A stretch of DNA of 64,000 bases from Paludibacteraceae bacterium (GCA_016283095.1 JAEEMG010000062.1:4694-68693); one strand, 5' to 3'. Counted from the stretch's first letter, positions 395 through 51,628 are shown. Translations and numbers: made by a program. The notes: generated by a model not told the origin, from the letters alone.

Positions 395-400
395 TTGGGT

Positions 401-11150: not shown

Positions 11151-11201
11151 CAAAGAACAAAGACAAAGAACTAGTAAATACTTTCAAAAATTTTAGTGAA
11201 A

Positions 11202-16031: not shown

Positions 16032-16859
16032 ATGAAAACAGAAGAGATTAAAGACCTGTTTCAAAAATTCGAATCAATCGCATGTGATTACGAAGGTGTT
16101 GAATGTTGGAGTGCCCGCGAACTGTGTGGGTTGCTTGGGTATGCCAAGTGGGAACGTTTCGAGGGGGTGATTGCCAAAGCGAAAGAGGCATGTTTGAATG
16201 CTGGAGAAAAAATTGAGGATCATTTTCCCGGCGCCGGGAAAATGATCGAGATCGCCAAAGGAGCTCAAAGAGAGGTTGACGACTACATGCTCACACGTTA
16301 TGCGTGTTATCTTGTGGCTCAGAATGGAGATCCGAGAAAGCCTGAGATCGCTTTTGCTCAGAACTATTTTGCTGTACAGACACGTGTGGCGGAAATGGTA
16401 GAGAAAAGACTCCTTGAGTTTGAGAGAGTGCAGGCTCGGCAAAAGTTGGCAGAAACAGAGAAACGTCTGTCTGGAGTGCTTTTTGAACGAGGTGTTGATA
16501 GCAAAGGTTTTGCTATGATACGTTCCAATGGCGACAAGGCATTGTTTAATCTTGACACAGCAATGTTGAAACGGAAAATAGGAGCTCCTTCAAATCGTCC
16601 CGTCGCAGATTTCTTATCAACGATCAACATCAAAGCAAAGGATTTTGCCGCAGAGATGACCTCTGTAAATGTCCAACAAAAAGACTTGTTCGGAGTGACT
16701 CAGATAGACAACGAGCATGTGGAAAATAATCTTGCCGTCAGAAATATGATGCTCGACAGAGGCATTGTCCCAGAGAATCAACCAGCTGGTGAGGATGTGA
16801 AGAAAGTGGAACGTCGATTGACATCGGAAGAGAAAAAAGTTTTGTCGAAAAGAAAATAG
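16032..16859 (+). CDS. dinD: DNA damage-inducible protein D (DinD) family
   Basis: N-terminal half matches the DinD pattern ([22 protein letters not shown]...[33 protein letters not shown]). Confidence 0.75.
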
Positions 16860-35389: not shown

Positions 35390-36048
35390 TAAAGTCTCTT
35401 TGTCTAAAAGTGATCTATAAATGGATTTGTAGACCTGTATTGAAATACTTTGTTGGTGTACAGTATCCAGATTGCTCATTTCTTAAGGATGAGAAGCAAT
35501 TCGTGATAATCGCAAACCACAACAGCCATCTTGACACGTTGAGCCTGTTGACATCGTTGCCTGGCGATATTTTGTGGAGAGTGCGTCCGGTGGCTGCCCA
35601 AGACTATTTTGGCAACACCAAGTTGAAGGCGATGTTGAGCAATTTCTTCATCAACACTCTGCTTATCAACCGTCGACCTAAAAAAGAGGACGGAAAGAGT
35701 AATGCTATTGAAAAAATGATGGAGGCTGTCGACGAGGGGTGTTCGCTGATCCTTTTTCCTGAAGGAAGCCGTGGTGAACCCGAGCAGATGAGCAAGATGA
35801 AGTCTGGAGTCGCACGATTGTTGTCGCAGCGACCAGGTCTGAAATATATACCAGTGTTTATGACAGGTATGGGCACGTCACTTCCGAAAGGAGGAATGGT
35901 GGTGCTTCCATACAATGCCACACTTCACTTCGGAGAACCTACACTTCCTGAGAGTGACGATTCGTATGCTATCATGGATCAGATAGAAAAGACTTTCGCT
36001 GACATGGTAGATAAGTACGGAATCAAAGAAGAAGAGGATGACGATTAA
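35374..36048 (+). CDS. Lysophospholipid (1-acyl-sn-glycerol-3-phosphate) acyltransferase family protein
   Basis: HxxxxD motif (NHNSHLD) and FPEGSRG motif. 16-nt overlap with the upstream gene. Confidence 0.85.
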   Translation: MEKPLIKSLCLKVIYKWICRPVLKYFVGVQYPDCSFLKDEKQFVIIANHNSHLDTLSLLTSLPGDILWRVRPVAAQDYFGNTKLKAMLSNFFINTLLINRRPKKEDGKSNAIEKMMEAVDEGCSLILFPEGSRGEPEQMSKMKSGVARLLSQRPGLKYIPVFMTGMGTSLPKGGMVVLPYNATLHFGEPTLPESDDSYAIMDQIEKTFADMVDKYGIKEEEDDD

Positions 36049-36161
36049 AATTCTGCTCTTTGTCGATGTTGGAGAATAAAAGATAAAGTTTTATCTTTGC
36101 AAAGAAACAATCTCAGGAGGCTGGGATTGAGGAAAACATTATAAAAAGTAATGGTACAAAA

Positions 36162-37022
36162 ATGGAAAAAGAAGAAAGAACAGAGATGCTGAATCCGTTC
36201 TGTGATGAAGGATTCAAACGGATTTTTGGAGATAAAATCCTGTTGATGGATTTTCTAAACTCATTTGTAGACGCCGGTTCTCCAATTGTGGATTTAACGT
36301 ATGAGAACAAGGAGATGGTGTCGGTGGAGAGTGATGGTCGGACAATAATCTTTGATTTGTTTTGCAAGTTGGATAATGGCAATAATGTCATAATAGAGAT
36401 GCAGAATAAAAATCAGGATTTTTTTGTAGACAGAGCGGTATTCTACCTTTCAAGAGCAATCTCAGCGCAGGGAGAAAAAGGAAGAATATGGAAATATGGG
36501 ATTAATTCAGTAATTGGAATATTCATCACTCAGTTTAGAGTGTTCGACAACGACGATGTCCTTTCTGAGATGAAACTGATTGATCCAAAGACACATAAGA
36601 TGGTTTCTGATAAGATGCATGGTTATTTTATACAGTTGCCTAAATTCAAGAAGTCAAACAACGGATGTGTGGACCATTTTGATGAGTGGATCTACAATCT
36701 GAAAAATATGGAGCGTATGGGGAATATAGAATTCAAGGATCAGGAAGTGTTTGAGAGATTATGGAATCTTTCAAACTGCTCTATGCTTTCCATAGAGGAA
36801 CGCCGCAAATACGAACGCAGCCTGAAAGCCTATCGTGATTATGTGAACCAATTGGATTTTGCAAAGGCTGAGGGAAGAGCGGAAGGTATTGCAGAGGGAA
36901 GAGCGGAAGGAAGAGCGGAAGAACGATCTTTCATGATATCAATGTTAAAGAAGAAAGGAATGAGTGATGAAGAAATCGCATATTATCTGGACATTGATAT
37001 AGAGGAAGTGAAATCTGTGTAG
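36162..37022 (+). CDS. Rpn-family recombination-promoting nuclease / putative transposase (PD-(D/E)XK)
   Basis: N-terminal FCDEGFKRIFG and IIFDLFC...VIIEMQN pattern of the Rpn/YhgA-like family. C-terminal AEGRAEGIAEGRAEGRAEE repeat typical of the family. TAtcTTTG box at 36092-36099. Confidence 0.75.
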   Translation: MEKEERTEMLNPFCDEGFKRIFGDKILLMDFLNSFVDAGSPIVDLTYENKEMVSVESDGRTIIFDLFCKLDNGNNVIIEMQNKNQDFFVDRAVFYLSRAISAQGEKGRIWKYGINSVIGIFITQFRVFDNDDVLSEMKLIDPKTHKMVSDKMHGYFIQLPKFKKSNNGCVDHFDEWIYNLKNMERMGNIEFKDQEVFERLWNLSNCSMLSIEERRKYERSLKAYRDYVNQLDFAKAEGRAEGIAEGRAEGRAEERSFMISMLKKKGMSDEEIAYYLDIDIEEVKSV

Positions 37023-37151
37023 GGGTATTTGTGAAGACGGAATTGTTTCCATTTTTTTTTATTTATGTCATTTCATGATTTTCTTCTTGTTGTTGGTCAA
37101 ATGTGAATTTGTTTGCAAAAAGACAAAAATCTTAAAACATCAATGAAATTA

Positions 37152-37182
37152 TTTGTGAAAATAAAAATATAATATATTTTTG
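37152..37182 (+). promoter_or_regulatory. Bacteroidetes-type promoter (-33 TTTG, 19-nt spacer, -7 TAttTTTG) upstream of the leader RNA and seven-gene operon
   Basis: TTTG at 37152-37155 and TATTTTTG at 37175-37182. Same spacing as the promoter at 33694-33724. Confidence 0.6.
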
Positions 37183-37189
37183 TGATGTC

Positions 37190-37484
37190 TCAAGCAGAAG
37201 CCCAATGGGTGGAGTTTGGGGTAGACATATTGAAAAGCGTTTACTTGACGCTTTGTTCTTGACGTTTCAGAATCTCGCAAATTCTAAATTCCTATCAAAA
37301 GCAAAGCAACAGTAGATGTCTATGGGTGTGTTTGTATGGCACTTGGTGCACCTCGTAAAAGGGGTGTGCTAAGTATTTATATAGGCATAGCGTGGGCTTC
37401 TGCGTTGCTCGTTCTAGATAGGAAGGCAATGCGAGAGCCTTGAAACGTGGGACGAGCGATAAGCACGATTCCCACGCTTTTTTT
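37190..37484 (+). ncRNA. Candidate structured leader / riboswitch-like RNA ending in an intrinsic terminator
   Basis: Long-range 11-bp helix 37194-37204 / 37393-37403. 8-bp helix 37221-37228 / 37316-37323. Hairpin 37234-37254. 14-bp hairpin 37341-37354 / 37361-37374 with four G-U pairs (plus-strand specific). Terminator stem 37446-37452 / 37470-37476 followed by T7. No convincing ORF. Confidence 0.5.
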
Positions 37485-37553
37485 GTGTCTGGGAGGAAAA
37501 AAGGAAATTTAATATTTGAGTTCGCTATTGGGGGTTGTGGCGATGGTTTTGTT

Positions 37554-38909
37554 ATGAAGATTAATACAACGTATTTGTTAGGTGTAATGACAATAGAAAG
37601 TATGGTTTTCTGTGCATCGTGTGTTGACAATCATGCTTCGTATTGTTATGAAGATTGGAATACTAAATTAGTTGAATATCACAACTCGAAATTTTCAAAT
37701 GACGAGGAAAAGTTGAAAGAAGAGTTGGATGTTTATGTAGACTATTCAACTTGTATGAAACAAGCCAATGATGATCCTAATGGATTATTTAAACAACTTC
37801 TATTATCTCCAATACTTGGTGCTCATCCAAATTATTATTCCATAAAAGGTAACCAAATTCAGCAGGAATCTGAAGATCCTAATATTTTGTTTAGGAGTAT
37901 TGTAGAAACTCCGTATGCAGATTTGAAGGGAGCTATAGAAAAGATGGCTTCCTCAAATTGTGAATCTGTGTTGATGACAGATGGAGAATATGTATTGAAG
38001 GATACTAAGGCTAATTGGAATGAAGGGACTCCTTATATGGCGGAGGCAATGAAAAAATGGTTGCTTCGTGGTCATGACATCCATATTTTAGTTGAACCAT
38101 ATATTGAGTCATTCAAAGGCAAAAACTATAACAAAAAAAGATTTTATATCTTTTTTACAGATCGATGTCTAAAGAATAATGTTTATTCTAAAATTGCAGA
38201 TAGAATCAATAAAGATAATATGAAAATTGATTCTTATCATATTTCATGTTCTCATGTAGGCTTAAAAAAACAAAATGGTACATCTTCTGTTGCTAGTCAG
38301 ATGTTAGCGGCTAAAATCACACCAAAAGAATCATTTGAGATTCAAGAGTGGCAAGTATATTGGAAAACTATAGAGGAGTCGATGGTATATAGTAGTTTTG
38401 ATCCTATTACTGGTGCTCCTATGGAAAATAGTGCACAAGTTATATCTGGACTTAGTCTTGCTGAAGATTGTTTGCTTGGATTCAAAATTAAAGATGTGGA
38501 TATGAAAGCATACTCAATATCTGATGAATTTTCTGTGTTTGCAGATTCTTCATTATTCAAGTACATTGGAGAAGCGTTCGAGGTTAAAGATTTTGTCACA
38601 CTTGACTCAAAAGAATTAAGTCAGGGAAACATATCTGTAATGTTTGCAAATCAGAATCAATACAATCCTTTGTTTATGATTAGTTCTCCATATAATTACC
38701 TTAGATTAGACTTTTATATTGGAACTGCAGAATCAACTATAGATAGTTATAAAAATATGTTCTGCTTTGACGATATCACAAAACCAGAACAACCGAATAC
38801 ATCTGTCTACGAAAGCATCAAGCAGTGTATGGACGATGCAGATATTTTGAGTAAGGTGAATGGTGCTCATTTGTATTCAATATATGTACAGTCTCCAAAT
38901 CGTGAATAA
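37554..38909 (+). CDS. Putative lipoprotein with vWA-like domain (operon gene 1)
   Basis: Signal peptide plus lipobox (MKINTTYLLGVMTIESMVFCASC). vWA-like strand/motif order VYVDYSTCM ... ADLKGAIEKM ... VLMTDGE ... IHILVEP. ATG at 37554 lies downstream of the leader terminator. Confidence 0.55.
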   Translation: MKINTTYLLGVMTIESMVFCASCVDNHASYCYEDWNTKLVEYHNSKFSNDEEKLKEELDVYVDYSTCMKQANDDPNGLFKQLLLSPILGAHPNYYSIKGNQIQQESEDPNILFRSIVETPYADLKGAIEKMASSNCESVLMTDGEYVLKDTKANWNEGTPYMAEAMKKWLLRGHDIHILVEPYIESFKGKNYNKKRFYIFFTDRCLKNNVYSKIADRINKDNMKIDSYHISCSHVGLKKQNGTSSVASQMLAAKITPKESFEIQEWQVYWKTIEESMVYSSFDPITGAPMENSAQVISGLSLAEDCLLGFKIKDVDMKAYSISDEFSVFADSSLFKYIGEAFEVKDFVTLDSKELSQGNISVMFANQNQYNPLFMISSPYNYLRLDFYIGTAESTIDSYKNMFCFDDITKPEQPNTSVYESIKQCMDDADILSKVNGAHLYSIYVQSPNRE

Positions 38910-38938
38910 TTCAATTTTAATTAATAAACTTTAATATT

Positions 38939-39385
38939 ATGAGTAGCTTGATTTTAGGTATTAAACCATTGTTTGTCTTTTTGTGGACAGTAATCATACC
39001 TGACAAAATTTTGACATTGCAGCAATTGCAGGATGTCCAGCAGAACGAGTTTTTTTTAGCGGTTTGTTGGTCTTTAACGGCTTTGTTAATTTCATTAATA
39101 GTGTCTAATTTAATTGCTTTTCAAGGTGGAGATGATAAATCATACATAAAGAGAAGAGTTTGGCATATTATAATAGGAGTCCTATCTGTTATATATTTCT
39201 ACTATTTCTATTATTTGGAAGTTATTCCAAGAATAGCTAATCCAGGATTCCAGTCGATGTTACATAAGACAAATTTGCAGTGCTTGGGTGTCACTTCAAG
39301 TGTGTATATTGTTGTAGGTCTAATCATTATGTTGTGCTGTAGACGTTCTAAATTTGGCTCTATTTTAGGTAAAGTAAAAGATTGA
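38939..39385 (+). CDS. Small 4-TM membrane protein (operon gene 2)
   Basis: 148 aa with four hydrophobic helices. 29 nt after gene 1 and 4 nt before gene 3. Confidence 0.55.
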   Translation: MSSLILGIKPLFVFLWTVIIPDKILTLQQLQDVQQNEFFLAVCWSLTALLISLIVSNLIAFQGGDDKSYIKRRVWHIIIGVLSVIYFYYFYYLEVIPRIANPGFQSMLHKTNLQCLGVTSSVYIVVGLIIMLCCRRSKFGSILGKVKD

Positions 39386-39389
39386 TATT

Positions 39390-40982
39390 ATGGCAGATTT
39401 TTTTGTTCTAGGTATAGGTGGTACTGGAATGCGTTGTATCGAAAGTCTCATTCATTTATGTGCAATGGGAATGTTCGATGACACAACCATTCATCTTCTT
39501 GCTCTAGATACCGATAAAAATAACGGTAATTTTAAGAGACTAAAAGATCTTAAAGATGCTTATGTAAAAGCAAAAGGAGGAAAAAATCCTTTATCAAAAA
39601 CGTTTTTCTCTGCGGCTATTGAGTACTATGAATTTAGCCCAAACTATCAGAGCAATAGCAATTTTGTCGAGAGATTTGACTATACAATTACACAGCAAAA
39701 GAACAGGCATAGATCAGATCTTGCTGATTTAGTATTGACAGAAAATGTTGAGAAGTTCAATCTTGATCACGGATATAGAGCACAAACACATCTTGGATCA
39801 ATGATGATGTATCATTCCATTGTCGAGATGGCAGATAAGGATTGTGATTTGACCAAGTTCCTTGACAAATTCGCTCAAAGTGCCAAAAATGGAGCTAAAA
39901 TGTTCATTTTAGGATCAGTTTTTGGAGGAACAGGGGCGTCTTCAATTCCTATTATTCCATTAGCATTCAAGGATACAATCGCAAAGAGAAGTGGTGACGT
40001 ATCTGATATCATACAAAGTGCATATTTTGGAGCTACTCTTTTGACTGCATATATTACATTTAAGACTCCTAATGAGGACCAGTTAAGGAAGGAAAAAATT
40101 GTGGCAACAAGTGATAAGTTTGATATTAATTCTCAGATTGCTATGATGTTTTATAATGCTGATCCTACAGTTCGCAATGCATACAGCAGATTTTATATGT
40201 TGGGATGCGACTCAAAATGGGATCCAATGAGTCGCCAAGAAGGAAAGATGGCTGAAACACTAACTGGAGGAGCTTCGCAGGAGAACGATTCACATTATAT
40301 TGAACTTATGGCTGCGTGTGCTGCTTTGGATTTTTATAAAACAGATGAAGCAACATTAAAGAAAACTAATGACGGACCACAATATCTTTATAGAGCAGTA
40401 GATGAGTCTGGAAAACTTGATTTTCAAGATTTTGTTGATACAGAAGATGAGAAATCTTTTGCTCAAAGATTCGGCACGTTGATTGCTTTTTCTTTGTTCT
40501 GTAATGGAGATGATGATTTTGTGTCAAAAATCCAGGAAAAAAAGCATGTTGAAATTCAAGATTTTGGAGAAATTGACGTCAATCAAATAAAGTATCTAAA
40601 ACAGTATTTTGAATTATTTCATTGGAAAAAAACGGACAATTTGAAGGACGGTGAAGGTTGGCTTCGTCAGCTTCATCGTTCTGCAGGAGGTTCGGATAAG
40701 TTTTTGTTTAATCAGAATCTATTTTCCCCAACTACTCAAAAGGAGTTGATGGGATTAAAATGGAATAAAGAATTATATCGTTCTGAAGGACTTGGTAAAG
40801 ACAATAAATACGATTATGGTCTTGTCGGTTTGGGACTCGGAGGGTCAAAATTCGATGAGTTCAAAAAGAAATTTATTGAATACTACAAAAAAGGAGATAA
40901 AGGTCAGAGTGAGAATAAGGGAGAACAGTTATACAAACTTGTTTTTGATACTCTTGCTTCATTGTATAAATTTGAAAAATAA
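39390..40982 (+). CDS. Tubulin/FtsZ-superfamily GTPase-like protein, distant (Tubulin_2 / FtsZ-like-1 type) (operon gene 3)
   Basis: N-terminal beta-strand plus Gly loop FFVLGIGGTGMRC (T1-like, 39411-39428). Second loop ILGSVFGGTGASSIPI (tubulin signature GGTG[SA]x, 39924-39941). Intervening DHGYRAQTHLG (T3-like). About 170-residue spacing, as in FtsZ/tubulin. Confidence 0.65.
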   Translation: MADFFVLGIGGTGMRCIESLIHLCAMGMFDDTTIHLLALDTDKNNGNFKRLKDLKDAYVKAKGGKNPLSKTFFSAAIEYYEFSPNYQSNSNFVERFDYTITQQKNRHRSDLADLVLTENVEKFNLDHGYRAQTHLGSMMMYHSIVEMADKDCDLTKFLDKFAQSAKNGAKMFILGSVFGGTGASSIPIIPLAFKDTIAKRSGDVSDIIQSAYFGATLLTAYITFKTPNEDQLRKEKIVATSDKFDINSQIAMMFYNADPTVRNAYSRFYMLGCDSKWDPMSRQEGKMAETLTGGASQENDSHYIELMAACAALDFYKTDEATLKKTNDGPQYLYRAVDESGKLDFQDFVDTEDEKSFAQRFGTLIAFSLFCNGDDDFVSKIQEKKHVEIQDFGEIDVNQIKYLKQYFELFHWKKTDNLKDGEGWLRQLHRSAGGSDKFLFNQNLFSPTTQKELMGLKWNKELYRSEGLGKDNKYDYGLVGLGLGGSKFDEFKKKFIEYYKKGDKGQSENKGEQLYKLVFDTLASLYKFEK

Positions 40983-40988
40983 TAGATT

Positions 40989-43900
40989 ATGTCAACAAAA
41001 GCACTTTTGATAGGTAGCACAAGTGGAGCTGCTGCAAGCGGACAGGGCCAATGGCATGTCTATGATAAAATTACATCTTTCATCGAAGGCATCAAAGCTG
41101 GTGTTTTGAAAGAAGGTGAGACTTTGGATGTTAAGAAGGTAGAGACTCTTATCTCGGGTATGCCAACTCCATGGGCTAGAGCTAAATTGTTTGGTTTGGC
41201 TTTTAAGCCAGTCACTGATAGCAAGAACAATAATACTGTAATCACTAAGTATTACGAACAGCTAATTGAAGAATGGCGTGGATTAATTACTCTTTTAGCT
41301 CTTTATGCTGATACAGACAGAATAAAGATTTCTGAACCAGTGGAAATGGATACAAATGCAGGTGTTTATGATATTACTGCTGCATTTGGACGCATGCTTT
41401 TTGATGATCGCAGTTTATGGTGCGACCAGGATGCATTGGAGAAAGACAAAAATGCTCAGCCTTTTATTCATTTGATTTATTACAAGGGTAAATTGGTTGG
41501 AGGAACATCTCCTTATACCGGTGTGTTTACAGGAGTATGTTACGATAAACTTGATTCTACCGATATTTCAGCTTGGTACAAAGACGGTAAGTTCCAGGAT
41601 CCTACTAAGCATCTAAATTCTGATCAATTACAGAAATTGTATCTATTTGTTCTCAATCTTTCAGAAAATGTAGAGAGTTTTGTGAATAAGATTTATGGTA
41701 CAGATGGTGATACCAGAAAAGTCGCCTTAAATAACTTTATTGAACAACTAAAGATCTGGAAAAAAGAGATAGAGAATAAGGGCTCAAATCTTCAAGATAA
41801 TGGACCTATTGCTAAACTTTCAGGACTTTCAGTTCCGTTCTCGTTGTTGTTTAAAAGTGATGTTCCTGTTTGCCTAAAGACAGATGGTTCATTCTCTTTC
41901 TCATTTGAGAATGGTGCAGAAAAACTTAATGACATACAAGAAATCTTAAATGATTCTGATTGGGTATTGGGTTGGACTGAAAATAGTGATGAAATGAATA
42001 AACTTTCAGATGCTCCAGTATATTATTTGAAGGTTAATAATATTGAAGATAATTCATCTGCGTATTTTACAGTTCCTTTGTCTCAGAAGGGTATTTCCAT
42101 CTTTAGAAATTGTCTTTCTAGTGTTTTAGGATATAGCACAGAAGGAAAGTCAAAGATGGTAGGTAGAATATCGGGTGATATGTTAGCAGTCTCAATGACT
42201 ATTGAGATTGATGGAAAACAGGTTGCTCTAAACCAAAAAGAATACAAGATTGACTGGGTTTGTGGCTTGGGTAAGGTTATTGTGTGGCCAAACTTTATGT
42301 CATCTAATTGGAACAAGTATTATTTGTATTCTGAATATACTCGTGTCGCACAAGAACAGTTTGATCCTTTTTTCTTTGATTTGACAAAAAATGATAAGAT
42401 TATTAAGGATAGACATAACAATTTCTTAACAGCACGTTATGTATATGATCCATCAGAAACAAAACTTGTTGATATAAATCATTTGGTAGAGTATCCTAAT
42501 GATTGCAGTGAAGAAAAAGCAAAGTATAATATATGGAATTCCGACAAACCTTTTGGTGGGTTGATTGCATATACTTCAGAGAACGGCAAAGAAAAAAATG
42601 CTGGATATTTGATTGTACGTCATGATCAAGTAAAGGACTTGTCGAACGATGCAATAATGGATACGGCTGAGGTAGGAATAGATTTCGGAAGCAACAATAC
42701 ATGTATATACTACAAGATGTCTTCACAGAATGATCCTAAACCGATAGAGTTTAAAAATTTTAGAGCAGTTTTGGTTGGTAAAGAGAATAACAATCCTCAC
42801 TCAAATGCAAATGCAGATGAGTTATTCTTTTTCACTAATTATGTTGTGTCAAACGGACAGTTCAAGTCTTGGTTGCATGAACATGATTCTCAATATGTAA
42901 GTAATAATTCTGCTGCAGAAATTGCAGGAGGAGTTCCTGTTAATCGTCCAAATGTTCAGGTTGTGGATATGGACGAGTATGCTATTACTACTCAGGTAGG
43001 AAAGTTGAACTACAACATGAAGTGGCTTAACGATGATGCTGGATTGAACAAAAAGGGTGCATTCCTTAAATCGTTGTGGTTGCAAACTTGTGCGTTCTTG
43101 TATGTGAATAGAATAACACCAAACAAATTGTATTGGAGTTATCCAGGGGCAATGATGGAGTCGGATATCAACAATCTAGACAAAAGAATGGAGAATTTAA
43201 CTAAATCTTTGCCAATTTTAGGAGCAAAAGTGTCGTTGGAGGATCCAAATACAGAAGCAGAAGCTGTGTGTAAATATGCGTTATCCCAACCCTTTGGATT
43301 GTCTAATGATAATATTTTTCTAGGAATTGATGTAGGAGGAAGTACAAGTGACATATTGTTGATAGCTAAAGATCCTTCAAATGGAAATAAAGAGACTCTT
43401 CTAAATGAAAGTTCTGTAAGATTGGCTGCTGGCGTTTTCTTCGGAGCGGTTAAGAATTCAGATGGTTTTAGAAATTCATTGGTAAAGTATCATGAAAGTG
43501 CTATAAATAAAAATGTGTTTGTTTCAAACATTAAGGAGGTAATCTCGAATAAAGGAAAAGCACCATATTTCTTGAATTGTATTTTTGATCAATTGCAACC
43601 ATCTGATTATGATGATTTCTATGATTCTATTTCAGAAAATTCAAAGCAGATATTTGCTATCCCTGCTTATGTGACAGGATTATTGTTGTTCTACTCTGGA
43701 ATGTTGATCGGAAACGTTGTAAAAGAAAGAAATATAGATAGAGTTTCTCGTGTTAAGGTAATGGCTTTTGGAAAAGGAGGACGTTTGTTCCATTGGCTTA
43801 AAGCAATCTCTTCTAGAAGTATGAATAGATATTATCAGAATTGCTTGAATGCAGGTGCTGAAATTATTTCTGGTAAGACTTTTGAGGTCACGTATGAAGA

Positions 43901-44378
43901 CTCTATAGCAGATAGTTGTAAGACTGAGGTTGCTTTCGGATTATGTTCTAATAATAGTTTTGAATCTGTCGACAAAAGCGTTCTTAAATCAGATATTTGT
44001 GGCGAAGAAGGTGTGAAATACACTACTGAATCAAATGATGAGATTTCTCTTGAAGCTTCGTCTAATTTGGATGCCAAATATTTTGAAGAATTGAATCGTT
44101 TAGATTTCACAAGCACTGCGAATTTTGAAAGGTTTGTTTCTATATTTATAAAGTATGTGAGCGAAGAAACAGACATATATCGTAGTGCCGAAACAGATTT
44201 AAGAAGTGATGTGGTGTCTTTGAGAGACGATATCGCAAATTTTATAAAGAGAGACGATGAGTATAAAAAGGCGGAGGCAATAAAGAGAAATAATGGAGAG
44301 TTTGCGTTCCATCAACCGATTATTATTGCAGAAGGTGCCGCATTTTTAAGAAAGTTTATTGATAAAGTATTTGCATAA
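40989..44378 (+). CDS. Giant (1129 aa) actin/Hsp70-fold ATPase-like protein with unrecognised N-terminal half (operon gene 4)
   Basis: Phosphate-1 VGIDFGSNNTCIYY (42675-42701), YWSYPGAM, phosphate-2 FLGIDVGGSTSDILLI (43323-43352), adenosine-like VMAFGKGGRLFHW (43764-43796), all in canonical order. Residues 1-560 match nothing I recognise. Confidence 0.65.
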   Translation: MSTKALLIGSTSGAAASGQGQWHVYDKITSFIEGIKAGVLKEGETLDVKKVETLISGMPTPWARAKLFGLAFKPVTDSKNNNTVITKYYEQLIEEWRGLITLLALYADTDRIKISEPVEMDTNAGVYDITAAFGRMLFDDRSLWCDQDALEKDKNAQPFIHLIYYKGKLVGGTSPYTGVFTGVCYDKLDSTDISAWYKDGKFQDPTKHLNSDQLQKLYLFVLNLSENVESFVNKIYGTDGDTRKVALNNFIEQLKIWKKEIENKGSNLQDNGPIAKLSGLSVPFSLLFKSDVPVCLKTDGSFSFSFENGAEKLNDIQEILNDSDWVLGWTENSDEMNKLSDAPVYYLKVNNIEDNSSAYFTVPLSQKGISIFRNCLSSVLGYSTEGKSKMVGRISGDMLAVSMTIEIDGKQVALNQKEYKIDWVCGLGKVIVWPNFMSSNWNKYYLYSEYTRVAQEQFDPFFFDLTKNDKIIKDRHNNFLTARYVYDPSETKLVDINHLVEYPNDCSEEKAKYNIWNSDKPFGGLIAYTSENGKEKNAGYLIVRHDQVKDLSNDAIMDTAEVGIDFGSNNTCIYYKMSSQNDPKPIEFKNFRAVLVGKENNNPHSNANADELFFFTNYVVSNGQFKSWLHEHDSQYVSNNSAAEIAGGVPVNRPNVQVVDMDEYAITTQVGKLNYNMKWLNDDAGLNKKGAFLKSLWLQTCAFLYVNRITPNKLYWSYPGAMMESDINNLDKRMENLTKSLPILGAKVSLEDPNTEAEAVCKYALSQPFGLSNDNIFLGIDVGGSTSDILLIAKDPSNGNKETLLNESSVRLAAGVFFGAVKNSDGFRNSLVKYHESAINKNVFVSNIKEVISNKGKAPYFLNCIFDQLQPSDYDDFYDSISENSKQIFAIPAYVTGLLLFYSGMLIGNVVKERNIDRVSRVKVMAFGKGGRLFHWLKAISSRSMNRYYQNCLNAGAEIISGKTFEVTYEDSIADSCKTEVAFGLCSNNSFESVDKSVLKSDICGEEGVKYTTESNDEISLEASSNLDAKYFEELNRLDFTSTANFERFVSIFIKYVSEETDIYRSAETDLRSDVVSLRDDIANFIKRDDEYKKAEAIKRNNGEFAFHQPIIIAEGAAFLRKFIDKVFA

Positions 44379-44380
44379 TT

Positions 44381-46810
44381 GTGGAGTTTCTTTCTTTATA
44401 CATAGATAGGTACTATATCATTGGTAATATTGTATCCGCAGAGATTACAGACGATGGGTCATATAATCTTTGCGGTTACAAACCATTGCATTTATCTAAT
44501 TCTGAAGACCGAATTTGGTTGTATTTTTTTGAAGATGTATCTGCAGACATGATAACCTATGGGTTGTCAAATAAAATTCATTGTGATAATAAAGAGCTAC
44601 ACTATTTTGAAGGTAGTGTGTTTGACAATATAGTCAATAAATATTCACAATATAAGTTAAGAGGTGTCTCAAAAGATATGAGTTCCATATTTGAGGATTC
44701 AAAAATATTTGAAGACTTAAAGTCTGGATTCAATAATAAAAGGTATATAGAAACATACGTTTCTTATTCGAATGACATACCAGTTTCTGCTAAAAATTTG
44801 TTTAATGAACTATTAATAAAAAATGGTTTTGTATTAAAGCAGTATATCGCCAGAATCGAAGAATTGACCAAAGAAAAACTTTGTCATAAAGAGGATTATG
44901 TAATAGTTCTTTCAGCATGTGATGAAAACCTTAATATATTGTTATTCGATAGAGGTTTGACTTCAACAAAACAGTTGAAAGGGAAAGGTTTGGATTTGCG
45001 TCAAAAAGCACTTGTTAAATTAGCTGTATCCAATATTAACAAAACAGCACATGTTTTAAGGTCGCAGGATGAAATAGATGATGAGATTATAAGATTGATG
45101 CCATATTCGAAGATTTGGCTGACTAAACTGGATTCGTCATCAATGCCAATTAAACTTGATATAGCTTTTGCTGTAGATCCGAATACGATACATTCTCCTC
45201 AGTTAAAAAAAATAGACGTAGAAGGTTATACAAGAGATTTAATTAAAGAATTGTCTTCGTATATTCATGAATATGTTGCAAAGAATGACGTGGATGAACA
45301 TCAGATTCAGAGAGTTATACTTATCGGTGAAATATTCAATAATGATTCTTTTAGGCAAGAGGTCTTAAGTAAATATTCGTGTGCTTATAATTGCGTTTCG
45401 GTTTCTGATTTGCCATCTATAGTGTCTTATTATACTCAGATGGATTGTTCAAAGTATGAGACAGAAAATACAGCTTTTGTAACTAGAGCAAAAAAAGATC
45501 TAGAAGAGAAACACAAAAATCAGGAACTTCAATTAAGAAAAGAACAAATTTCTCTTCAATCAGAAAAAGAAAGAGATTTAGCTATTGCACAGGCAGAAGC
45601 AAGAAAACAATTTGATTCCTTTAAGAATAAATACCAAGAAGCGGCAAGAGAATTAAGATGGAAAGATGCTATTGATTTTGCAGAAAAGACGAAATGGGCA
45701 TTGGATAAGAAAGATTTAGAATACTCATCGAAAATTGCATATATCGATGGTGATATAGATGAGTATAGAAAAAAATTATCCGAGCAAGAGTATAAATTTG
45801 AAATTTTTAAGAAAGAAATTAAATTGGCTCGAGAATTCTTTGATAATCAAAATTGGGAAGATGCAATAAAACATGCAGATAAGGCTTTGGATGCAAATCC
45901 AGAAGCAGAGGACGCTAAAAGATACATTGTTGAATCTCGAAATAAAATAGCAGAGAAGGGTAAAATTAAGGAATATATCACAAGAGCAACGTTACTTCTT
46001 GGTCAGAAAAATTATGCAGAAGCTTTGGAGGAAGTCGAAGATGGTTTGAAACTCGAACGTGCTAATGATGAATTACTTTCCTTAAAAAACGAAATCACCT
46101 TAAAAGAAAACGATTTTAAGGTTAAGGTTGAGGAACTATCTGGAAGATTAGAGTCTGCAATTTTAAATAAAGAATTAGATTTGGCATTGAACATAATTGC
46201 TGAATTAATTGAATTTGACAATGCTCACTCTGCTAAATGGTTTGACAAAAAAAATGAGGTTAGAGAATTAATTAGAGATAAAGAACAGTTTGAAAATAAG
46301 CTAAAGGTTATAAAATCAGACATCGATTTAGCGTACAAGCTAAAACAATGGGAGAAGGTCCTGTCTTTATGTTCGAATTATTTGTCTAATAAGGATGATT
46401 CCGAAGTGGCTAAAATTAAAAGAGAATCAGAAGCAAGGATCGAAGAAATTAACCAAACTAATAAAATAGTTGACCTATTCGAAGAAATTGATTCTCTTAT
46501 TTCTGAAAAAAAGTACTCTATTGCAGAGAAAAAAGTAAAGTTCCTTCAGTCGGAGTATCCTGAGGAGAGAGAGCGATGCAAAAAAATGATTGGAAAAATA
46601 TTTGATTTAGAAGACGAAGAAGATCGTAAGATAAGAGATAAAAATAGAGGAAGTGAAGATAAATCCGATTCAGATGATTTCTTTAACGAAAAACCTAAAA
46701 AAAAGACAAAAGTTAACATAGATTGTTATGATGATGATTTCTTTAATGAGAAACCTCAAAAAAGAGTAAATGTAAATAAGAACAGTTCTGATGACGATTT
46801 TGATTTTTAA
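44381..46810 (+). CDS. Degenerate actin/Hsp70-fold domain fused to periodic TPR-like/coiled-coil repeats and an acidic-aromatic repeat tail (operon gene 5)
   Basis: GTG start 2 nt after the gene 4 stop. N-terminal approx. 350 aa has relics of the fold (LYIDRYYIIG, VIVLSACDENLNILLFD, RVILIGEIFNNDSFRQ). Six modules (WKDAIDFAEK, NWEDAIKHADKAL, NYAEALEEVEDGL, ELDLALNIIAEL, QWEKVLSLCSNYL, KYSIAEKKVKFL) recur every 53-64 aa. The tail has DDFFNEKPKKK / DDDFFNEKPQKR / DDDFDF. Confidence 0.55.
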   Translation: MEFLSLYIDRYYIIGNIVSAEITDDGSYNLCGYKPLHLSNSEDRIWLYFFEDVSADMITYGLSNKIHCDNKELHYFEGSVFDNIVNKYSQYKLRGVSKDMSSIFEDSKIFEDLKSGFNNKRYIETYVSYSNDIPVSAKNLFNELLIKNGFVLKQYIARIEELTKEKLCHKEDYVIVLSACDENLNILLFDRGLTSTKQLKGKGLDLRQKALVKLAVSNINKTAHVLRSQDEIDDEIIRLMPYSKIWLTKLDSSSMPIKLDIAFAVDPNTIHSPQLKKIDVEGYTRDLIKELSSYIHEYVAKNDVDEHQIQRVILIGEIFNNDSFRQEVLSKYSCAYNCVSVSDLPSIVSYYTQMDCSKYETENTAFVTRAKKDLEEKHKNQELQLRKEQISLQSEKERDLAIAQAEARKQFDSFKNKYQEAARELRWKDAIDFAEKTKWALDKKDLEYSSKIAYIDGDIDEYRKKLSEQEYKFEIFKKEIKLAREFFDNQNWEDAIKHADKALDANPEAEDAKRYIVESRNKIAEKGKIKEYITRATLLLGQKNYAEALEEVEDGLKLERANDELLSLKNEITLKENDFKVKVEELSGRLESAILNKELDLALNIIAELIEFDNAHSAKWFDKKNEVRELIRDKEQFENKLKVIKSDIDLAYKLKQWEKVLSLCSNYLSNKDDSEVAKIKRESEARIEEINQTNKIVDLFEEIDSLISEKKYSIAEKKVKFLQSEYPEERERCKKMIGKIFDLEDEEDRKIRDKNRGSEDKSDSDDFFNEKPKKKTKVNIDCYDDDFFNEKPQKRVNVNKNSSDDDFDF
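46673..46807 (+). repeat. 60-nt periodic coding repeat (gatgatttctttaa[c/t]ga[a/g]aaacct...) giving three DDFF/DDDF motifs at the C-terminus of gene 5
   Basis: gatgatttctttaa occurs at 46673 and 46733; a related gatgacgattttgatttt occurs at 46790. Confidence 0.8.
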
Positions 46811-46832
46811 CGAAATTTAAAAAATATTAAAT

Positions 46833-47411
46833 ATGGCAGATGTAATATTAAAAAAGAAGATCACTCTTCGCCGTAAGGGAGAGTGTGTTGAGTTCACTTT
46901 CGATGATAAGTTGAAGGTACAGTTGTTTTGGACTTCTGATACAGATCAGGACCTTTGTATTTTCTTTAAGAAGAAAGATGGAGGAATTGGTGGCGTATTC
47001 TCCAATGAGTACAGAGGTAAGAAGTCTGATCTTGGTTCATTAGACAAGTTTCCATTTATGCTTCATAGAGGAGATGAGAAAGATCCTACAGAAGGAAACG
47101 AGCAGATGGAGCAGGTAGATGTAAAAAATCTTGATGAGATTGATACTGCATATGTATGTGTTGTTAACTATGGTGCTGCTATTGAAGGAGAAGACGTTAC
47201 TTTTGCAAATGAAGGATGTCGTGTTGAATTGAAATCGAACACAGGAGATTATCTTGAAGTTATTGGTGATAGCGACAAGGATGGTTATGTGTTCTGTGTA
47301 TGTTCAATTAAAAATGAGGATGGAAAGAATTCGGTGACAAAGGTTGATGAGGTATACGATCTTTCTGATGCTTTTGATAAAATTCCAGGATTCTCTTTGA
47401 TCACAAATTAA
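46833..47411 (+). CDS. TerD-domain protein (operon gene 6)
   Basis: 192 aa, the size of classical TerD. The order VILKKKITLRRKGE / QLFWTSDTDQDLCIFF / HRGDEKDPTEGNEQMEQVDVKNLDEIDTAYVCVVNY / CRVELKSNTG / GYVFCVCSIKNEDG parallels the TerD pattern (SLSKG / GLGWD..DLDASAFLL / HTGDNRTGEGDGDDE.I.V.L / AFIRL / MLFGELYR). Confidence 0.7.
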   Translation: MADVILKKKITLRRKGECVEFTFDDKLKVQLFWTSDTDQDLCIFFKKKDGGIGGVFSNEYRGKKSDLGSLDKFPFMLHRGDEKDPTEGNEQMEQVDVKNLDEIDTAYVCVVNYGAAIEGEDVTFANEGCRVELKSNTGDYLEVIGDSDKDGYVFCVCSIKNEDGKNSVTKVDEVYDLSDAFDKIPGFSLITN

Positions 47412-47417
47412 TAAGAG

Positions 47418-48029
47418 ATGGTTCAGCTTAAGAGAAAAGTAACTCTAAAAGAGAAACATGAAGTTGCTTCTTCAGAGTCGATTCCTTCAGAAACAAGAAA
47501 TCAACAGGAATCTGAAAACAAGTCAAAGTCTTGGCTTCCATTTCTCTTATGTGGATTACTAATTGTAGGTGCAGGTATATATTTCTTGACACGTAATTCT
47601 AGTGGAAACGAGAAAACATACGCTTCAAATGATGAAAATGAGGGAAAAACAGAAATTAAAAACGAAGATTCTGTTATTCCTGTATCCGATGATCAACAAA
47701 GTCCTGTTGTAAGTACAACATCAGTTGTTGAAGATAAGGATATAATACCAAATGAGGTTGTAACTGCCGTTGAATCTAAAAAAGAGTCGTCAATGCCTGA
47801 CAATCCTATAATAGAGAATAAGGTATCTTCTTCTAAATCATCTACAGATGCTAGTAAAACAGAATCTGTAGTGAGATCAGAATCTATACCTGTTTCTGAA
47901 ATAGAGCTTACAGCTAAAGAGGTAATTCGAGGAAATTATGGAAATGGTCGCATTAGAAAAGACAAGTTAGGTGATCGATATTCTGAGATACAAAGTAAGG
48001 TAAATGAAATGTATCGTAAAGGATTGTAA
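47418..48029 (+). CDS. Single-pass membrane protein with Ser/Glu-rich linker and C-terminal CW_7 (Cpl-7-like) peptidoglycan-binding motif (operon gene 7)
   Basis: TM WLPFLLCGLLIVGAGIYFL. Low-complexity linker. C-terminus ELTAKEVIRGNYGNGRIRKDKLGDRYSEIQSKVNEMY resembles the CW_7 repeat consensus (VI.G.(Y/W)GNG..R...LG..Y..VQ..VN). Confidence 0.55.
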   Translation: MVQLKRKVTLKEKHEVASSESIPSETRNQQESENKSKSWLPFLLCGLLIVGAGIYFLTRNSSGNEKTYASNDENEGKTEIKNEDSVIPVSDDQQSPVVSTTSVVEDKDIIPNEVVTAVESKKESSMPDNPIIENKVSSSKSSTDASKTESVVRSESIPVSEIELTAKEVIRGNYGNGRIRKDKLGDRYSEIQSKVNEMYRKGL

Positions 48030-48030
48030 T

Positions 48031-48068
48031 AAACACCTTAGGCAGACAAAGTCTGCCTAAGGTGTTTT
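48031..48068 (+). terminator. Strong intrinsic terminator closing the seven-gene operon
   Basis: Perfect 17-bp stem aaacaccttaggcagac / gtctgcctaaggtgttt with a 3-nt loop, starting 2 nt after the stop, ending in TTTT. Confidence 0.85.
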
Positions 48069-48092
48069 AGAGTATAGCGTATGTTATAACCT

Positions 48093-48404
48093 TTGTGTTT
48101 TTTTTGCTTTCATCTTGTTCTACAACGGATCCTTATAAAAATTATTTTCTATAAGAAAATAATTGGCTCAAGAGTATTCAATGTGTTAGTAGAACATGAA
48201 TATCTCGCAAAAGCATTGGAAACGATAGAAAGCGAATTGACCGGAGATTGTGATGATTTCGCAACACTTATAGCGACATTTATATTGTCTATAGGAGGTG
48301 AGATTCGTGTGACAATAGCGTCTGGTCCAGATGGAGGACATGCGTATACTGAAGGACGTCGGTTTAATCGATTTCAGATTTTAAATGAAGATGGTCATAT
48401 ATGA
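48093..48404 (+). pseudogene. Transglutaminase-like cysteine peptidase core fragment (probable gene remnant)
   Basis: LTGDCDDFATLIATFILSIGGEIRV...GGHAYTE matches the Cys...His part of the transglutaminase-like core (G.C.DFA.L...L.R..GIP.R.V.G....HAW.E). Only about 100 aa, no good start, and an implausible N-terminus. Confidence 0.35.
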
Positions 48405-48544
48405 TTGAATCTTGATTGGCAAACTCTATATTAAGGAGGTTTGTATTTCAATGCAGCTAGAAAAAATGTTATAAATGTATAAATCGAAAATATGTAGTTA
48501 TGGTAATTAACTAATAAAATAGAAACACTAATAATACGATAAAT

Positions 48545-51500: not shown

Positions 51501-51628
51501 TGCCAGGTTTACAGGAAATGTTTAATGTGGCAGCCGGTGGTGTTAAAGTGATAGATTGGATCATTATTGTAGGTGTTACATCGTTTGTCCTTTGGATTGG
51601 CGAATTATTCAGATTGTTTAAGAAGTAA
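48545..51628 (+). CDS. P-type (P2) Ca2+-transporting ATPase
   Basis: TGE (SLTGEP), VPEGLP in TM4, phosphorylation site CSDKTGTLTQN, TGDAPGTA, hinge VTGDGTNDAPAL, 10 TM. N-terminal cation-ATPase-N segment. Confidence 0.92.
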   Translation: MAKEHYKGLTDQEVLQSREKYGVNILTPPAEESMWEKIKNCMHFWLLKVDLAIFIIAAIIAFALPITGIYSHEGLWVAPVLSFVLFVLTYFVAYLGGEWNEEDAEFDIDSLFTILLFALLLSGSIAFYNGVFGGVEGWTPYLELVGIAVAVLLATTVAHILESQNEKTFQSLNDVNDDTLVKVIRNNNVCQVPRRDIVVGDIVLLEAGEEVPADAVILRCMNLIMNESSLTGEPQCSKSTNPDEFDKNATYPSNHIMKGCTVMEGDCIAEVFAVGDKTACGKVFEAAQVKDGEATPLSEKLDELAGLITKTSYGIAILIVLGRLIRHALILPETNYVSLFGYLGVSLVIAGFIYWGLNKKKNDDNEESIELWQVIVFMILPIIGIILYFALDSTASTNWPLFIQYALDSVMIAVTLIVVAVPEGLPMAVTLSLAFSMKRLMKQNTLPRTMHACETMGAVSVICSDKTGTLTQNQMKVVETTFPELKDQKLGDDRYSSLLKECISVNTTANLDFADSKKIKAIGNPTEGALLLWLNNNGANYLSIRESLPVIDRLQFSTELKYMATIVNSEVTSKRIVYVKGAPDILMGLCDISESEMKNYNEKLTEYQNHAYRTLAFAYKEIKDSDDIFTDGKLNINDLKMMGIVGILDPVRSDVPNAISECLNAGIQVKIVTGDAPGTAKEIGRQLGLWKEEDKEENLLIGTELAAMSDEELKNRLPKVKIISRARPNDKERAVRFLKDLDYIVAVTGDGTNDAPALNAANVGLSMGDGTAVAKEASDMTIIDNSFSTIANAVMWGRSLYKNIKRFILFQMTVNVAACLIVAIGAFIGEESPLTVTQMLWVNLIMDTFAALALASLPPAKTVMDEKPRSVNEHILKDMGVEILGVGGIFTVILLGICVYFQHTNITCLTDLFDGTAVWGDNDGLSAYELGLFFTIFVMLQFWNLFNAKAFMTSDSAFKGISWKDTKWFIIIALVIFVGQVLMTEMPGLQEMFNVAAGGVKVIDWIIIVGVTSFVLWIGELFRLFKK

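Follow-up and report, generated by a model that had tools for sequence, protein, structure and literature searches.

A conserved Bacteroidales operon pairs a probable, highly divergent member of the tubulin/FtsZ superfamily with a giant Hsp70-like protein

What does a protein with FtsZ-like nucleotide-binding loops and no FtsZ C-terminal domain do in a bacterium with canonical ftsZ genes nearby? Here, we analyze g530, the 530-amino-acid (aa) product of an open reading frame (ORF) in a 64,000-nucleotide (nt) stretch of DNA from a Paludibacteraceae bacterium (GCA_016283095.1, JAEEMG010000062.1:4694-68693; this whole stretch is called the window, and positions are counted from its first letter). 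An initial annotation, made from the sequence, had read g530 as a divergent tubulin/FtsZ-like GTPase. The evidence supports placing g530, although highly diverged, in the tubulin/FtsZ superfamily, within a short (~530 aa) branch of the Tubulin_2/FtsZ-like-1 (FtsZl1) assemblage, and its homology to tubulin and FtsZ is very probable. For some g530 homologues, a tubulin-like call had already been made by Pfam-based annotation; the main value of the locus lies in the conserved pairing of g530 with an unrecognized giant Hsp70-like ATPase and a small membrane protein, both in Bacteroidales and on cyanobacterial plasmids. This three-gene core, found from Bacteroidales to Cyanobacteria, is a compact, testable system, and it raises the questions of polymerization by a tubulin-fold protein that lacks the usual C-terminal domain, of an Hsp70-fold ATPase as the FtsA-like partner of a tubulin-fold protein, and of the role of such tubulin-like/Hsp70-like machines at the cell envelope. 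A search of the literature, whose searchable part is incomplete, found no paper on the g530 operon and no functional study of a Tubulin_2/FtsZl1-type protein; the family figures there mainly as an outgroup for FtsZ/tubulin phylogenies.

The g530 ORF fills its interval exactly, from ATG to stop (Table 1). Superfamily membership was clearest at the family level. Among 21 close relatives, 19 matched both Pfam Tubulin (PF00091; gathering cut-off, 33 bits) and Tubulin_2 (PF13809; gathering cut-off, 27 bits), and among 74 diverse relatives, 48 matched Tubulin_2 (best E = 6.6e-10) and 22 matched Tubulin (best E = 1.5e-8) at E <= 1e-3. Many g530 homologues of 57 to 60% identity (among the matches listed) carry a precomputed PF13809 match. 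A homologue on a Gloeothece plasmid, annotated as a "tubulin-like domain-containing protein," scored 40.8 bits, above the Tubulin_2 cut-off, and was joined to g530 by tblastn (E = 9e-24, 81% of the query covered). The membership of g530 itself in Tubulin_2 is by transitive homology, because its own score is sub-threshold while its relatives pass or approach the cut-off.

Structure prediction pointed the same way. An AlphaFold2 model of g530 was built from 21 sequences (predicted TM-score [pTM], 0.83; mean predicted local distance difference test score [pLDDT], 73) and searched with Foldseek; the best PDB match by E value was Bacillus subtilis FtsZ (4u39, E = 4e-3), and the highest probabilities (best, 0.96 to 1.0) fell to FtsZ, TubZ (4ei7), and many tubulins. 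In a second search, of predicted viral structures, a phage tubulin came first (probability, 1.0; TM-score, 0.42 on the target). When the g530 family profile was aligned to the canonical FtsZ of the window with hhalign, T3, H3, S4, T4, H4, S5, and T5 fell in register (P = 0.004 to 0.006); with E. coli FtsZ alone, only S4 to T5 aligned (E = 0.027).

Several results weigh against this placement. The scores of g530 itself were below the cut-offs for Tubulin (17.9 bits, E = 0.004, residues 159 to 196 on model positions 100 to 137) and for Tubulin_2 (16 bits, E = 0.0073, residues 6 to 186). Foldseek E values were only 4e-3 to 0.1, with TM-scores of 0.2 to 0.42; Rossmann-type folds appeared among the lower-probability matches, and the model was poorly predicted at residues 98 to 128 and 234 to 254. 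The hhalign probabilities of the family to FtsZ were low, with a register that was consistent but weak. Searches of PDB chains returned nothing significant, whether the query was g530 alone or a profile of 74 sequences (the sole hints for the profile being CetZ and FtsZ at the T4 loop), and a search of the seven operon proteins against NCBIfam gave no match. The structural evidence is supportive and not decisive, because the E values and TM-scores are modest and Rossmann-type enzymes occur at lower probability. The reading of the initial annotation is supported at the family level: FtsZ, TubZ, tubulins, and a phage tubulin topped two Foldseek libraries (with no E value below 4e-3 and no TM-score above 0.42), and Tubulin and Tubulin_2 profiles were significant for the relatives and not for g530.

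The residue pattern of g530 was followed in an alignment of the 74 diverse relatives (mean column identity, 23%; down to 21% identity). Two glycine loops, lying in FFVLGIGGTGMRC (residues 4 to 16) and ILGSVFGGTGASSIPI (residues 173 to 188), had been described as about 170 residues apart and taken for T1 and T4. The measured spacing is 169 residues, and the arrangement is not a matter of chance, since loop residues such as G10, G11, G179, and G182 are invariant across the relatives. In T1, which lies between strand 2-9 and helix 10-26 of the model, G10 and G11 are invariant and G13 is conserved in at least 90%. T4 reads FGGTGAS (178 to 184), a variant of the GGGTG[ST]G signature, in which F178, G179, G182, and A183 are invariant and G180, T181, and P187 are each conserved in at least 90%. 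At the T2-like position, D42 and a D or E at residue 40 occur in 74/74 relatives, followed by N45 and G46 (invariant or nearly so); where g530 has LDTD, the canonical FtsZs of the window have NTD at the presumed equivalent place. The T3-like DHGYRAQTHLG proposed between T1 and T4 found support in hhalign, which puts GYRAQTHLG on FtsZ T3; G128 is invariant, [YF]129 is invariant or nearly so, and R130 and G136 are each conserved in at least 90%. Y221, F222, and F224 of the S5/T5 region are again invariant or nearly so. Five separate loop motifs of g530 stand in FtsZ order and register.

Beyond the loops, a helix that we read as H7 by comparison with FtsZ carries Q297, N299, an E or D at 305, and F315 in 74/74 relatives, with H302 in 71/74; helix 302-317 of the model coincides with this segment. 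The initial annotation had found no T7 catalytic loop. A candidate does exist, the T7-like motif 343-LDFQDFV-349, in which D347 is kept in 63/74 relatives (85%), residue 345 is aromatic in 60/74, and residue 348 is L, F, or I in 69/74; the motif directly precedes a long helix (351 to 372 in the model), like the T7/H8 junction NVDFADV of FtsZ, and is separated from the H7-like helix by an inserted strand (331 to 337). Judged by its sequence, g530 appears to keep the nucleotide-binding half of the fold, with the T1 to T4 loops, a conserved Q-x-N-D in its H7-like helix, and perhaps an Asp like that of T7.

As the initial annotation had held, no FtsZ-like C-terminal domain was found: a Pfam search gave no FtsZ_C or Tubulin_C match, and residues 350 to 530 are mostly helical in the model. 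The model suggests that a family-specific, mostly helical domain replaces the C-terminal domain of FtsZ and tubulin. In a profile search of cluster representatives, distant relatives matched only about the first 330 positions, which fits a conserved nucleotide-binding core with a lineage-specific C-terminal domain; within the Bacteroidales family, the last 200 residues are highly conserved. A role as the cell division FtsZ was rejected, as g530 lacks FtsZ_C, the window holds ftsA and two canonical ftsZ genes, and BLASTP found no similarity between g530 and the window's FtsZ. The g530 operon lies ~25 kb away from that dcw cluster.

The gene that starts 6 nt past the g530 stop codon encodes g1129, which represents a very divergent Hsp70-like family that was recognized by none of the sequence libraries used. 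No Pfam domain was found in g1129 or 120 homologues, and no PDB sequence matched. Its AlphaFold2 model (34 sequences; pLDDT, 76.9; pTM, 0.72) had 232 Foldseek matches in the PDB at E <= 1e-3, the top 50 of which were all Hsp70 nucleotide-binding domains (NBDs), with Ssb1, BiP, Hsc70, and DnaK leading (best E = 4.5e-9; probability, 1.0). Because sequence libraries find nothing while the model matches Hsp70 NBDs, g1129 appears to be a new, very divergent Hsp70-like branch. Four motifs are invariant in its 34 homologues, namely, VGIDFGSNNT (D565), TEAEAVC (E756/E758), GIDVGGSTSD (D781, G783, G784, T786, and D788), and FGKGGR (927 to 932), so that the phosphate-1 (DxG), phosphate-2 (DxGGxTxD), and adenosine (GGxxR) motifs of ASKHA proteins are intact alongside an NBD fold in the model. 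Residues 1 to 59 (positions 40989 to 41165) are among the most conserved parts of g1129 in these homologues, yet their pLDDT is below 50, which makes them a candidate for a peptide folding on a partner, possibly the tubulin-like protein. The operon has only two Walker-A-like strings, both in g1129 and neither conserved.

The family is widespread. A word-indexed search with g530 found 1,654 proteins at E <= 1e-3; the best 120 of these were 56 to 61% identical, except for one near-identical protein, and the few with names were Prevotella "hypothetical proteins." A profile search of 1.84 billion cluster representatives found 1,701 clusters at E <= 1e-3, 1,187 of them at E <= 1e-10. Among contigs from one genome per species, 274 stretches encode a g530 relative, nearly all from Bacteroidales or other Bacteroidota, with the closest (93% identity) in Candidatus Scybalocola fimicaballi (Paludibacteraceae). 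Abundant and partly cultivable gut bacteria carry the family, including Segatella copri, Phocaeicola vulgatus/sartorii, Prevotella jejuni/fusca, and Porphyromonas uenonis. No g530 homologue was found in 50,697 phage records. Seven metagenome-assembled genomes labeled as Clostridia, Eubacteriales, Oscillospiraceae, Treponemataceae, or Chlorobiaceae (L026, L032, L039, L041, L056, L066, and L072) contain a Bacteroidales-type operon with 45 to 58% identity to the window, through either contig mis-binning or recent horizontal transfer.

Operon loci in Bacteroidales are chromosomal. The same three-gene order stands on mobilizable cyanobacterial plasmids, in Gloeothece verrucosa PCC 7822 (NC_014503; L082, 8505 to 13900) and in Picosynechococcus strains (PCC 7003; L083, 8483 to 13887), as a protein of ~156 to 170 aa, a tubulin-like protein of ~510 aa, and a protein of ~1,100 aa. 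The small protein is hydrophobic and multi-transmembrane-like in the one Picosynechococcus copy that was translated. The ~1,100-aa protein aligned with g1129 in hhalign (probability, 98%; E = 2.4e-13; 484 columns) and carries DLGTS and DLGGGTSD, motifs more canonical than those of g1129, together with GGNGSR. Different genes follow the core on the plasmids (coiled-coil-like, "prefoldin," and TM2-domain); a 409-aa protein encoded upstream was considered as a relative of g489, the first protein of the window's operon, and showed no detectable relationship. The most divergent Bacteroidota loci still keep g530 together with g1129. This persistence and the shared order on the plasmids suggest that the functional unit is the transmembrane protein, the tubulin-like protein, and the Hsp70-like protein; the other operon genes seem to be lineage-specific additions to this core.

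In the window, g530 is the third of seven tightly packed genes with intergenic gaps of 2 to 29 nt (Table 1). Window proteins were compared by tblastn with 81 related loci, across which the gene order was constant; detected were g1129 in 77/81, the small membrane protein g148 in 70/81, g489 in 66/81, g809 in 54/81, the CW_7 end of g203 in 47/81, and g192 in 40/81. Three loci (L073, L075, and L080) count against a fixed pair, having no detectable g1129 neighbor. The stop codon of g148 lies 4 nt before the g530 start.

The remaining operon genes surround this core. Directly upstream of it, in the same order in the 66 loci with a match, g489 probably starts at the ATG at 37554 (MKINTTYLL...), and its orthologues open with a signal peptide and a lipobox (LSAC, LTGC, IVSC, and similar). 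Within LYVDYSTC and LLTDGEY, g489 has invariant D101, S103, D181, and E183 and a near-invariant T180, and these D-x-S...T-D-G-E motifs resemble a metal-ion-dependent adhesion site (MIDAS); a vWA domain is a motif-level hint, and it is opposed by the lack of a Pfam or PDB profile match and of any Pfam domain in 120 homologues. Downstream, g809 has a Pfam TPR_14 repeat above the cut-off and a long helical region that looks like a coiled coil; its last ~70 residues contain repeated DDFF motifs and end in a conserved DDFDF. One idea, that the N-domain of g809 derives by decay from a duplicate of the g1129 Hsp70-like domain, was dropped after hhalign showed no similarity. The combination of an acidic-aromatic tail and TPR in g809 recalls the EEVD-tail/TPR docking of eukaryotic Hsp70/Hsp90 co-chaperones.

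The small protein g192 often occurs in two or three tandem copies in related loci (L028, 17636 to 18611; L020, 10535 to 11514; L011, 13855 to 15256; L013, 17814 to 19181). In hhalign, it aligned in register with a validated TerD sequence without significance (P = 0.11), and Pfam and PDB searches were null, which speaks against TerD. For an extra helical protein of 128 to 134 aa in some related loci, the top Pfam model was TerB (E = 1.9e-4, narrowly short of the cut-off), and the hint of TerD is slightly strengthened by these sub-threshold TerB-like genes; the sequences thus hint at Ter-like (TerD/TerB) accessory genes. The last gene encodes g203, with a transmembrane segment at residues 38 to 60.

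A P-type cation-transporting ATPase gene follows in the window, and 36/81 loci, from many genera, have a match to it on the same stretch as the operon, on the upstream side in Porphyromonas and on the downstream side in the others. This varied side argues for a functional link and not inherited synteny, and the ATPase is possibly linked to the operon in function. Between the operon and the ATPase gene, a 103-aa ORF (48093 to 48404) has a weak transglutaminase-core match (E = 0.008) and may be a gene fragment. A lower-GC block (~36000 to 51600; 0.32 to 0.38, versus ~0.43 in the flanks) covers the whole operon and the P-type ATPase gene and begins right after a transposase gene; together, the low GC content and the adjacent transposase suggest horizontal acquisition.

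Table 1. Features of the g530 operon and of the division cluster in the window
Feature	Position	Strand	Basis or description
Penicillin-binding protein gene of dcw cluster	395-2524		dcw cluster
ftsA	11196-12611		dcw cluster
Canonical ftsZ, first (450 aa)	12614-13966	+	Tubulin and FtsZ_C
Canonical ftsZ, second (463 aa)	13947-15338	+	Tubulin and FtsZ_C
PD-(D/E)XK family transposase gene	36162-37022		Pfam PDDEXK_2, E = 1.2e-46
g489, predicted lipoprotein, first operon gene, vWA/MIDAS-like motif pair	37440-38909	+	Orthologue alignment
g148, small integral membrane protein	38939-39385	+	Four Kyte-Doolittle segments
g530, divergent tubulin/FtsZ-superfamily (Tubulin_2-like) predicted GTPase	39390-40982	+	ORF, family profiles, model, alignments
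T1-like glycine loop GIGGTG, G8-G13, after strand S1	39411-39428	+	Alignment of 74 relatives, model
T2-like D40-T-D42 after strand S2, cf. FtsZ NTD	39507-39515	+	Conservation; equivalence proposed
T3-like loop DHGYRAQTHLG, residues 126-136	39765-39797	+	Conservation, hhalign to FtsZ T3
S4-T4 signature GSVFGGTGASS, residues 175-185	39912-39944	+	Conservation, Pfam Tubulin, hhalign
H7-like helix, N-terminal Q297-x-N299-D, cf. FtsZ H7 AANDVL	40278-40340	+	Conservation, model; H7 equivalence proposed
Candidate T7-like motif 343-LDFQDFV-349	40416-40436	+	Conservation; resembles FtsZ NVDFADV
g1129 (1,129 aa), C-terminal Hsp70-like NBD, N-terminal peptide, alpha and beta domains	40989-44378	+	AlphaFold2 model, motifs
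Approximate Hsp70/actin-fold ATPase core of g1129, residues ~555-1000	42651-43988	+	Invariant motifs
g809	44381-46810	+	~370-aa N-domain, long helical region with TPR repeat, acidic-aromatic tail
g192, small soluble protein	46833-47411	+	TerD-like pattern W..DLDLC..GGVFS..HxGD..E.I.V..VNY
g203, single-pass membrane protein with C-terminal CW_7 repeat	47418-48029	+	Pfam CW_7, E = 1.9e-12
P-type cation-transporting ATPase	48545-51628	+	Pfam Cation_ATPase_N, E1-E2_ATPase, Cation_ATPase, Hydrolase, Cation_ATPase_C

We favor, as rather probable, a reading in which g530 and g1129 form a membrane-associated, FtsZ/FtsA-like pair of the FtsZl1 type, g530 being the subunit that self-assembles or switches in a GTP-dependent manner. 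The core machine would consist of g148 with its four transmembrane segments, the tubulin-like g530, and the giant Hsp70/actin-fold ATPase g1129. g530 would bind GTP through T1 to T4 and H7 and self-associate, possibly head to tail, with D347 acting on the neighbor's nucleotide. By analogy with FtsA and FtsZ, g1129 would bind the g530 polymer or oligomer, couple it to the membrane protein g148, and remodel it with ATP. The direct interaction of g530 with g1129 and g148 is likewise an inference, as is the physiological output. Longitudinal, FtsZ-like polymerization is not assured, because g530 has no canonical C-terminal domain and has a strand inserted between H7 and the T7 candidate, and this tells against the favored reading. 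In Bacteroidales, the core would be extended by an exported vWA-motif lipoprotein, an acidic-tail TPR protein, TerD-like proteins, a membrane-anchored peptidoglycan-binding protein, and often a P-type ATPase. Taken together, these additions suggest an envelope-spanning response to envelope or cation stress, or a remodeling function, a role for the operon that we put at slightly less than an even chance; the link to the envelope lies in four-transmembrane g148, lipobox-bearing g489, and g203 with its transmembrane segment and CW_7 repeat.

A bolder form of the idea, which we consider speculative and rather unlikely, would make the small transmembrane protein, the tubulin-like GTPase, and the giant Hsp70-like ATPase a cytomotive module that is new to the literature and widespread, in gut Bacteroidales and on cyanobacterial plasmids. 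An Hsp70-fold motor would nucleate, anchor, or remodel a filament or ring of the tubulin-fold protein at the inner membrane, so that an "FtsZ/FtsA-like" solution would have arisen independently a second time; the Bacteroidales version would be connected to periplasmic/peptidoglycan-binding parts and to cation transport, for envelope remodeling (e.g., vesiculation or damage repair) or invader exclusion.

Among the alternatives, two concern what g530 is and one concerns how it works. That g530 is not a tubulin or FtsZ at all, and is instead another Rossmann-like nucleotide- or sugar-binding protein with glycine loops mimicking T1 and T4, would sit well with its sub-threshold Pfam scores, its low TM-scores, and the short-chain dehydrogenases, nucleoside hydrolases, and glycosyltransferases among the Foldseek matches. 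Those matches are, however, less probable than the FtsZ, TubZ, and tubulin matches that top both libraries, and with the family-level E values for Tubulin_2 and Tubulin, one homologue above a curated cut-off, and the order and register of the five loop motifs, we hold this explanation to be very unlikely. The least likely of all, to the point of being scarcely credible, is a TubZ/PhuZ-like DNA-segregation tubulin of a mobile element: TubZ is among the best structural matches and distant homologues sit on cyanobacterial plasmids, but the Bacteroidales operon is chromosomal (in the window ~25 kb from the dcw cluster), phage homologues are lacking, and the neighbors include no evident TubR-like DNA-binding gene and no DNA-binding Pfam match (centromere-like repeats were not searched for). 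A g530 that has lost cytomotive properties and serves as a monomeric or dimeric GTP-binding switch, or as a client or cofactor of the Hsp70-like ATPase, is less far-fetched, and we still think it improbable. Half of the longitudinal interface of FtsZ and tubulin, the C-terminal domain, is absent, a strand separates H7 from the T7 candidate, and Makarova and Koonin considered the same for FtsZl1. The conservation of D347 in 85% of relatives would nevertheless fit a subunit-subunit contact, and the high conservation of the last 200 residues in the Bacteroidales family is consistent with an interaction surface. The T7 loop of known tubulin/FtsZ proteins acts on the nucleotide of the neighboring subunit.

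The strongest competitor of the envelope role is an antiphage or antiplasmid conflict system, unlikely in our judgment, in which the two NTPases, tubulin-like and Hsp70-like, would build an assembly that sets a threshold or serves containment, and the Ter-like parts would detect invaders or keep them out at the envelope; the molecular mechanism of g530 would be the same under both. Tubulin and Hsp70 homologues, with vWA and membrane proteins, were placed in such systems by Kaur, Burroughs, Iyer, and Aravind (2020). A transposase gene marks the start of the operon block, the GC content of the block is below that of the flanks, the operon core is borne by mobilizable plasmids in cyanobacteria, and TerB-/TerD-like accessory genes, of the kind of system linked to phage and xenobiotic exclusion, occur in related loci. 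Flanks vary between genera, with glycosidases, transporters, or a trypsin-like peptidase in some and, upstream of the operon in S. copri (L019, 3930 to 6557), a VapE-like/DUF3874/BT4734-like gene and a DUF6078 gene, which we take to be associated with Bacteroides mobile elements. Yet the gene set of the operon itself is constant and not variable across the 81 loci, and ten flank proteins sampled from six loci included no defense genes. PADLOC was null for 6/7 operon proteins, with a weak, sub-threshold match of g203 to PD-T4-6 (E = 0.0083). The window's operon has no recognizable toxin, nuclease, protease, or other effector, no DO-GTPase, and no conserved P-loop, and, as noted, the phage records yielded no homologue.

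Comparison with described systems set the favored FtsZ/FtsA-like reading in context. With Tubulin_2/FtsZl1 proteins, g530 shares an FtsZ-like nucleotide-binding domain at the N terminus (T1 and T4 kept, family-specific inserts between them), the absence of FtsZ_C and Tubulin_C, and coexistence with a canonical FtsZ. FtsZl1 operons contain vWA, OmpA-like, and membrane proteins (Makarova and Koonin, 2010); the g530 operon likewise has membrane and peptidoglycan-binding proteins (g148, g489, and g203) and possibly a vWA protein, with CW_7 as the module where FtsZl1 has OmpA. In the M. magneticum FtsZl1 locus (amb2957-2961), a 1,626-aa DnaK-like gene is listed, on which the main text of the same paper is silent, and the authors proposed an envelope stress/remodeling-type function for FtsZl1 operons. 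Typical FtsZl1 proteins are ~900 to 1,130 aa (listed, 913 to 1,133) and combine a long coiled coil with an alpha-helical C-terminal domain (Makarova and Koonin, 2010), whereas g530 is about half that size and has no long coiled-coil segment in the secondary structure of its model. The g530 operon has neither the predicted novel GTPase nor the protein kinases found in FtsZl1 operons, and the H7-like helix and T7-like Asp, not identifiable in FtsZl1, seem to be retained. The 2010 FtsZl1 list has no Prevotella or Porphyromonas entries, and its B. caccae protein (913 aa) has other neighbors (Makarova and Koonin, 2010). FtsZl2 was set aside by its description: it is proteobacterial, with a ~300-aa mixed alpha/beta C-terminal region and no conserved neighborhood, whereas g530 occurs in Bacteroidota and Cyanobacteria with a conserved operon. 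Of the placement in the families of Makarova and Koonin suggested by the initial annotation, the relation to Tubulin_2 and to these families stood; g530 does not share the typical FtsZl1 architecture (~1,000 aa, with a coiled coil) and is no FtsZl2 protein.

As in FtsZ-FtsA, a tubulin-fold gene lies beside an actin/Hsp70-fold ATPase gene with membrane and cell-wall-linked partners, and the window also holds a genuine ftsA-ftsZ pair. The g530 operon differs in its reversed order, with the tubulin-like gene first, in an ATPase partner of 1,129 aa that matches Hsp70 NBDs and not FtsA, and in the absence of FtsZ_C from g530. Operons with tubulin, Hsp70-like, vWA, TPR, and membrane parts have been proposed as NTP-dependent assemblies (Kaur et al., 2020), and the DO-GTPase-GAP1 systems resemble the g530 operon in combining tubulin, Hsp70-like, TPR, and membrane parts, the vWA hint here being at the motif level. 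Unlike in those systems, which are defined by one or two TRAFAC-clade DO-GTPases and GAP1, the g530 operon proteins have no GTPase Pfam match and no conserved P-loop (GAP1 was not searched for), and where the tubulin and Hsp70 themes of Kaur et al. are non-overlapping and firmicute/actinobacterial, here they occur together in Bacteroidales and Cyanobacteria.

TubZ and PhuZ resemble g530 in being far-diverged proteins of the tubulin fold with no place in the divisome; the structure search ranked them among its best matches, and some g530 homologues are also plasmid borne. TubZ retains a tubulin-like C-terminal domain. In the g530 neighborhood, by contrast, no TubR-like adaptor is evident (tubC-type repeats were not looked for), and no phage homologues were found. 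Ter systems have been described as forming sub-membrane structures, and the TerD-like g192 with its paralogues, the TerB-like proteins of related loci, and the vWA-like and membrane proteins recall them, none of these assignments being significant. The g530 operon differs in having no TerC, TelA, or nucleotide-biosynthesis genes, and we know of no tubulin-like proteins in Ter systems.

The division genes of the window drew attention of their own. The two tandem FtsZs encoded after ftsA are 53% identical; to our knowledge, a side-by-side pair of divisome-type FtsZ paralogues is unusual for a bacterium, and their position at the end of the dcw cluster may deserve a separate look. Directly downstream of the second ftsZ, in a dip in GC content (0.377), lies a BRO-N domain ORF (16032 to 16859), a domain typical of antirepressor-like proteins of phages and mobile elements.

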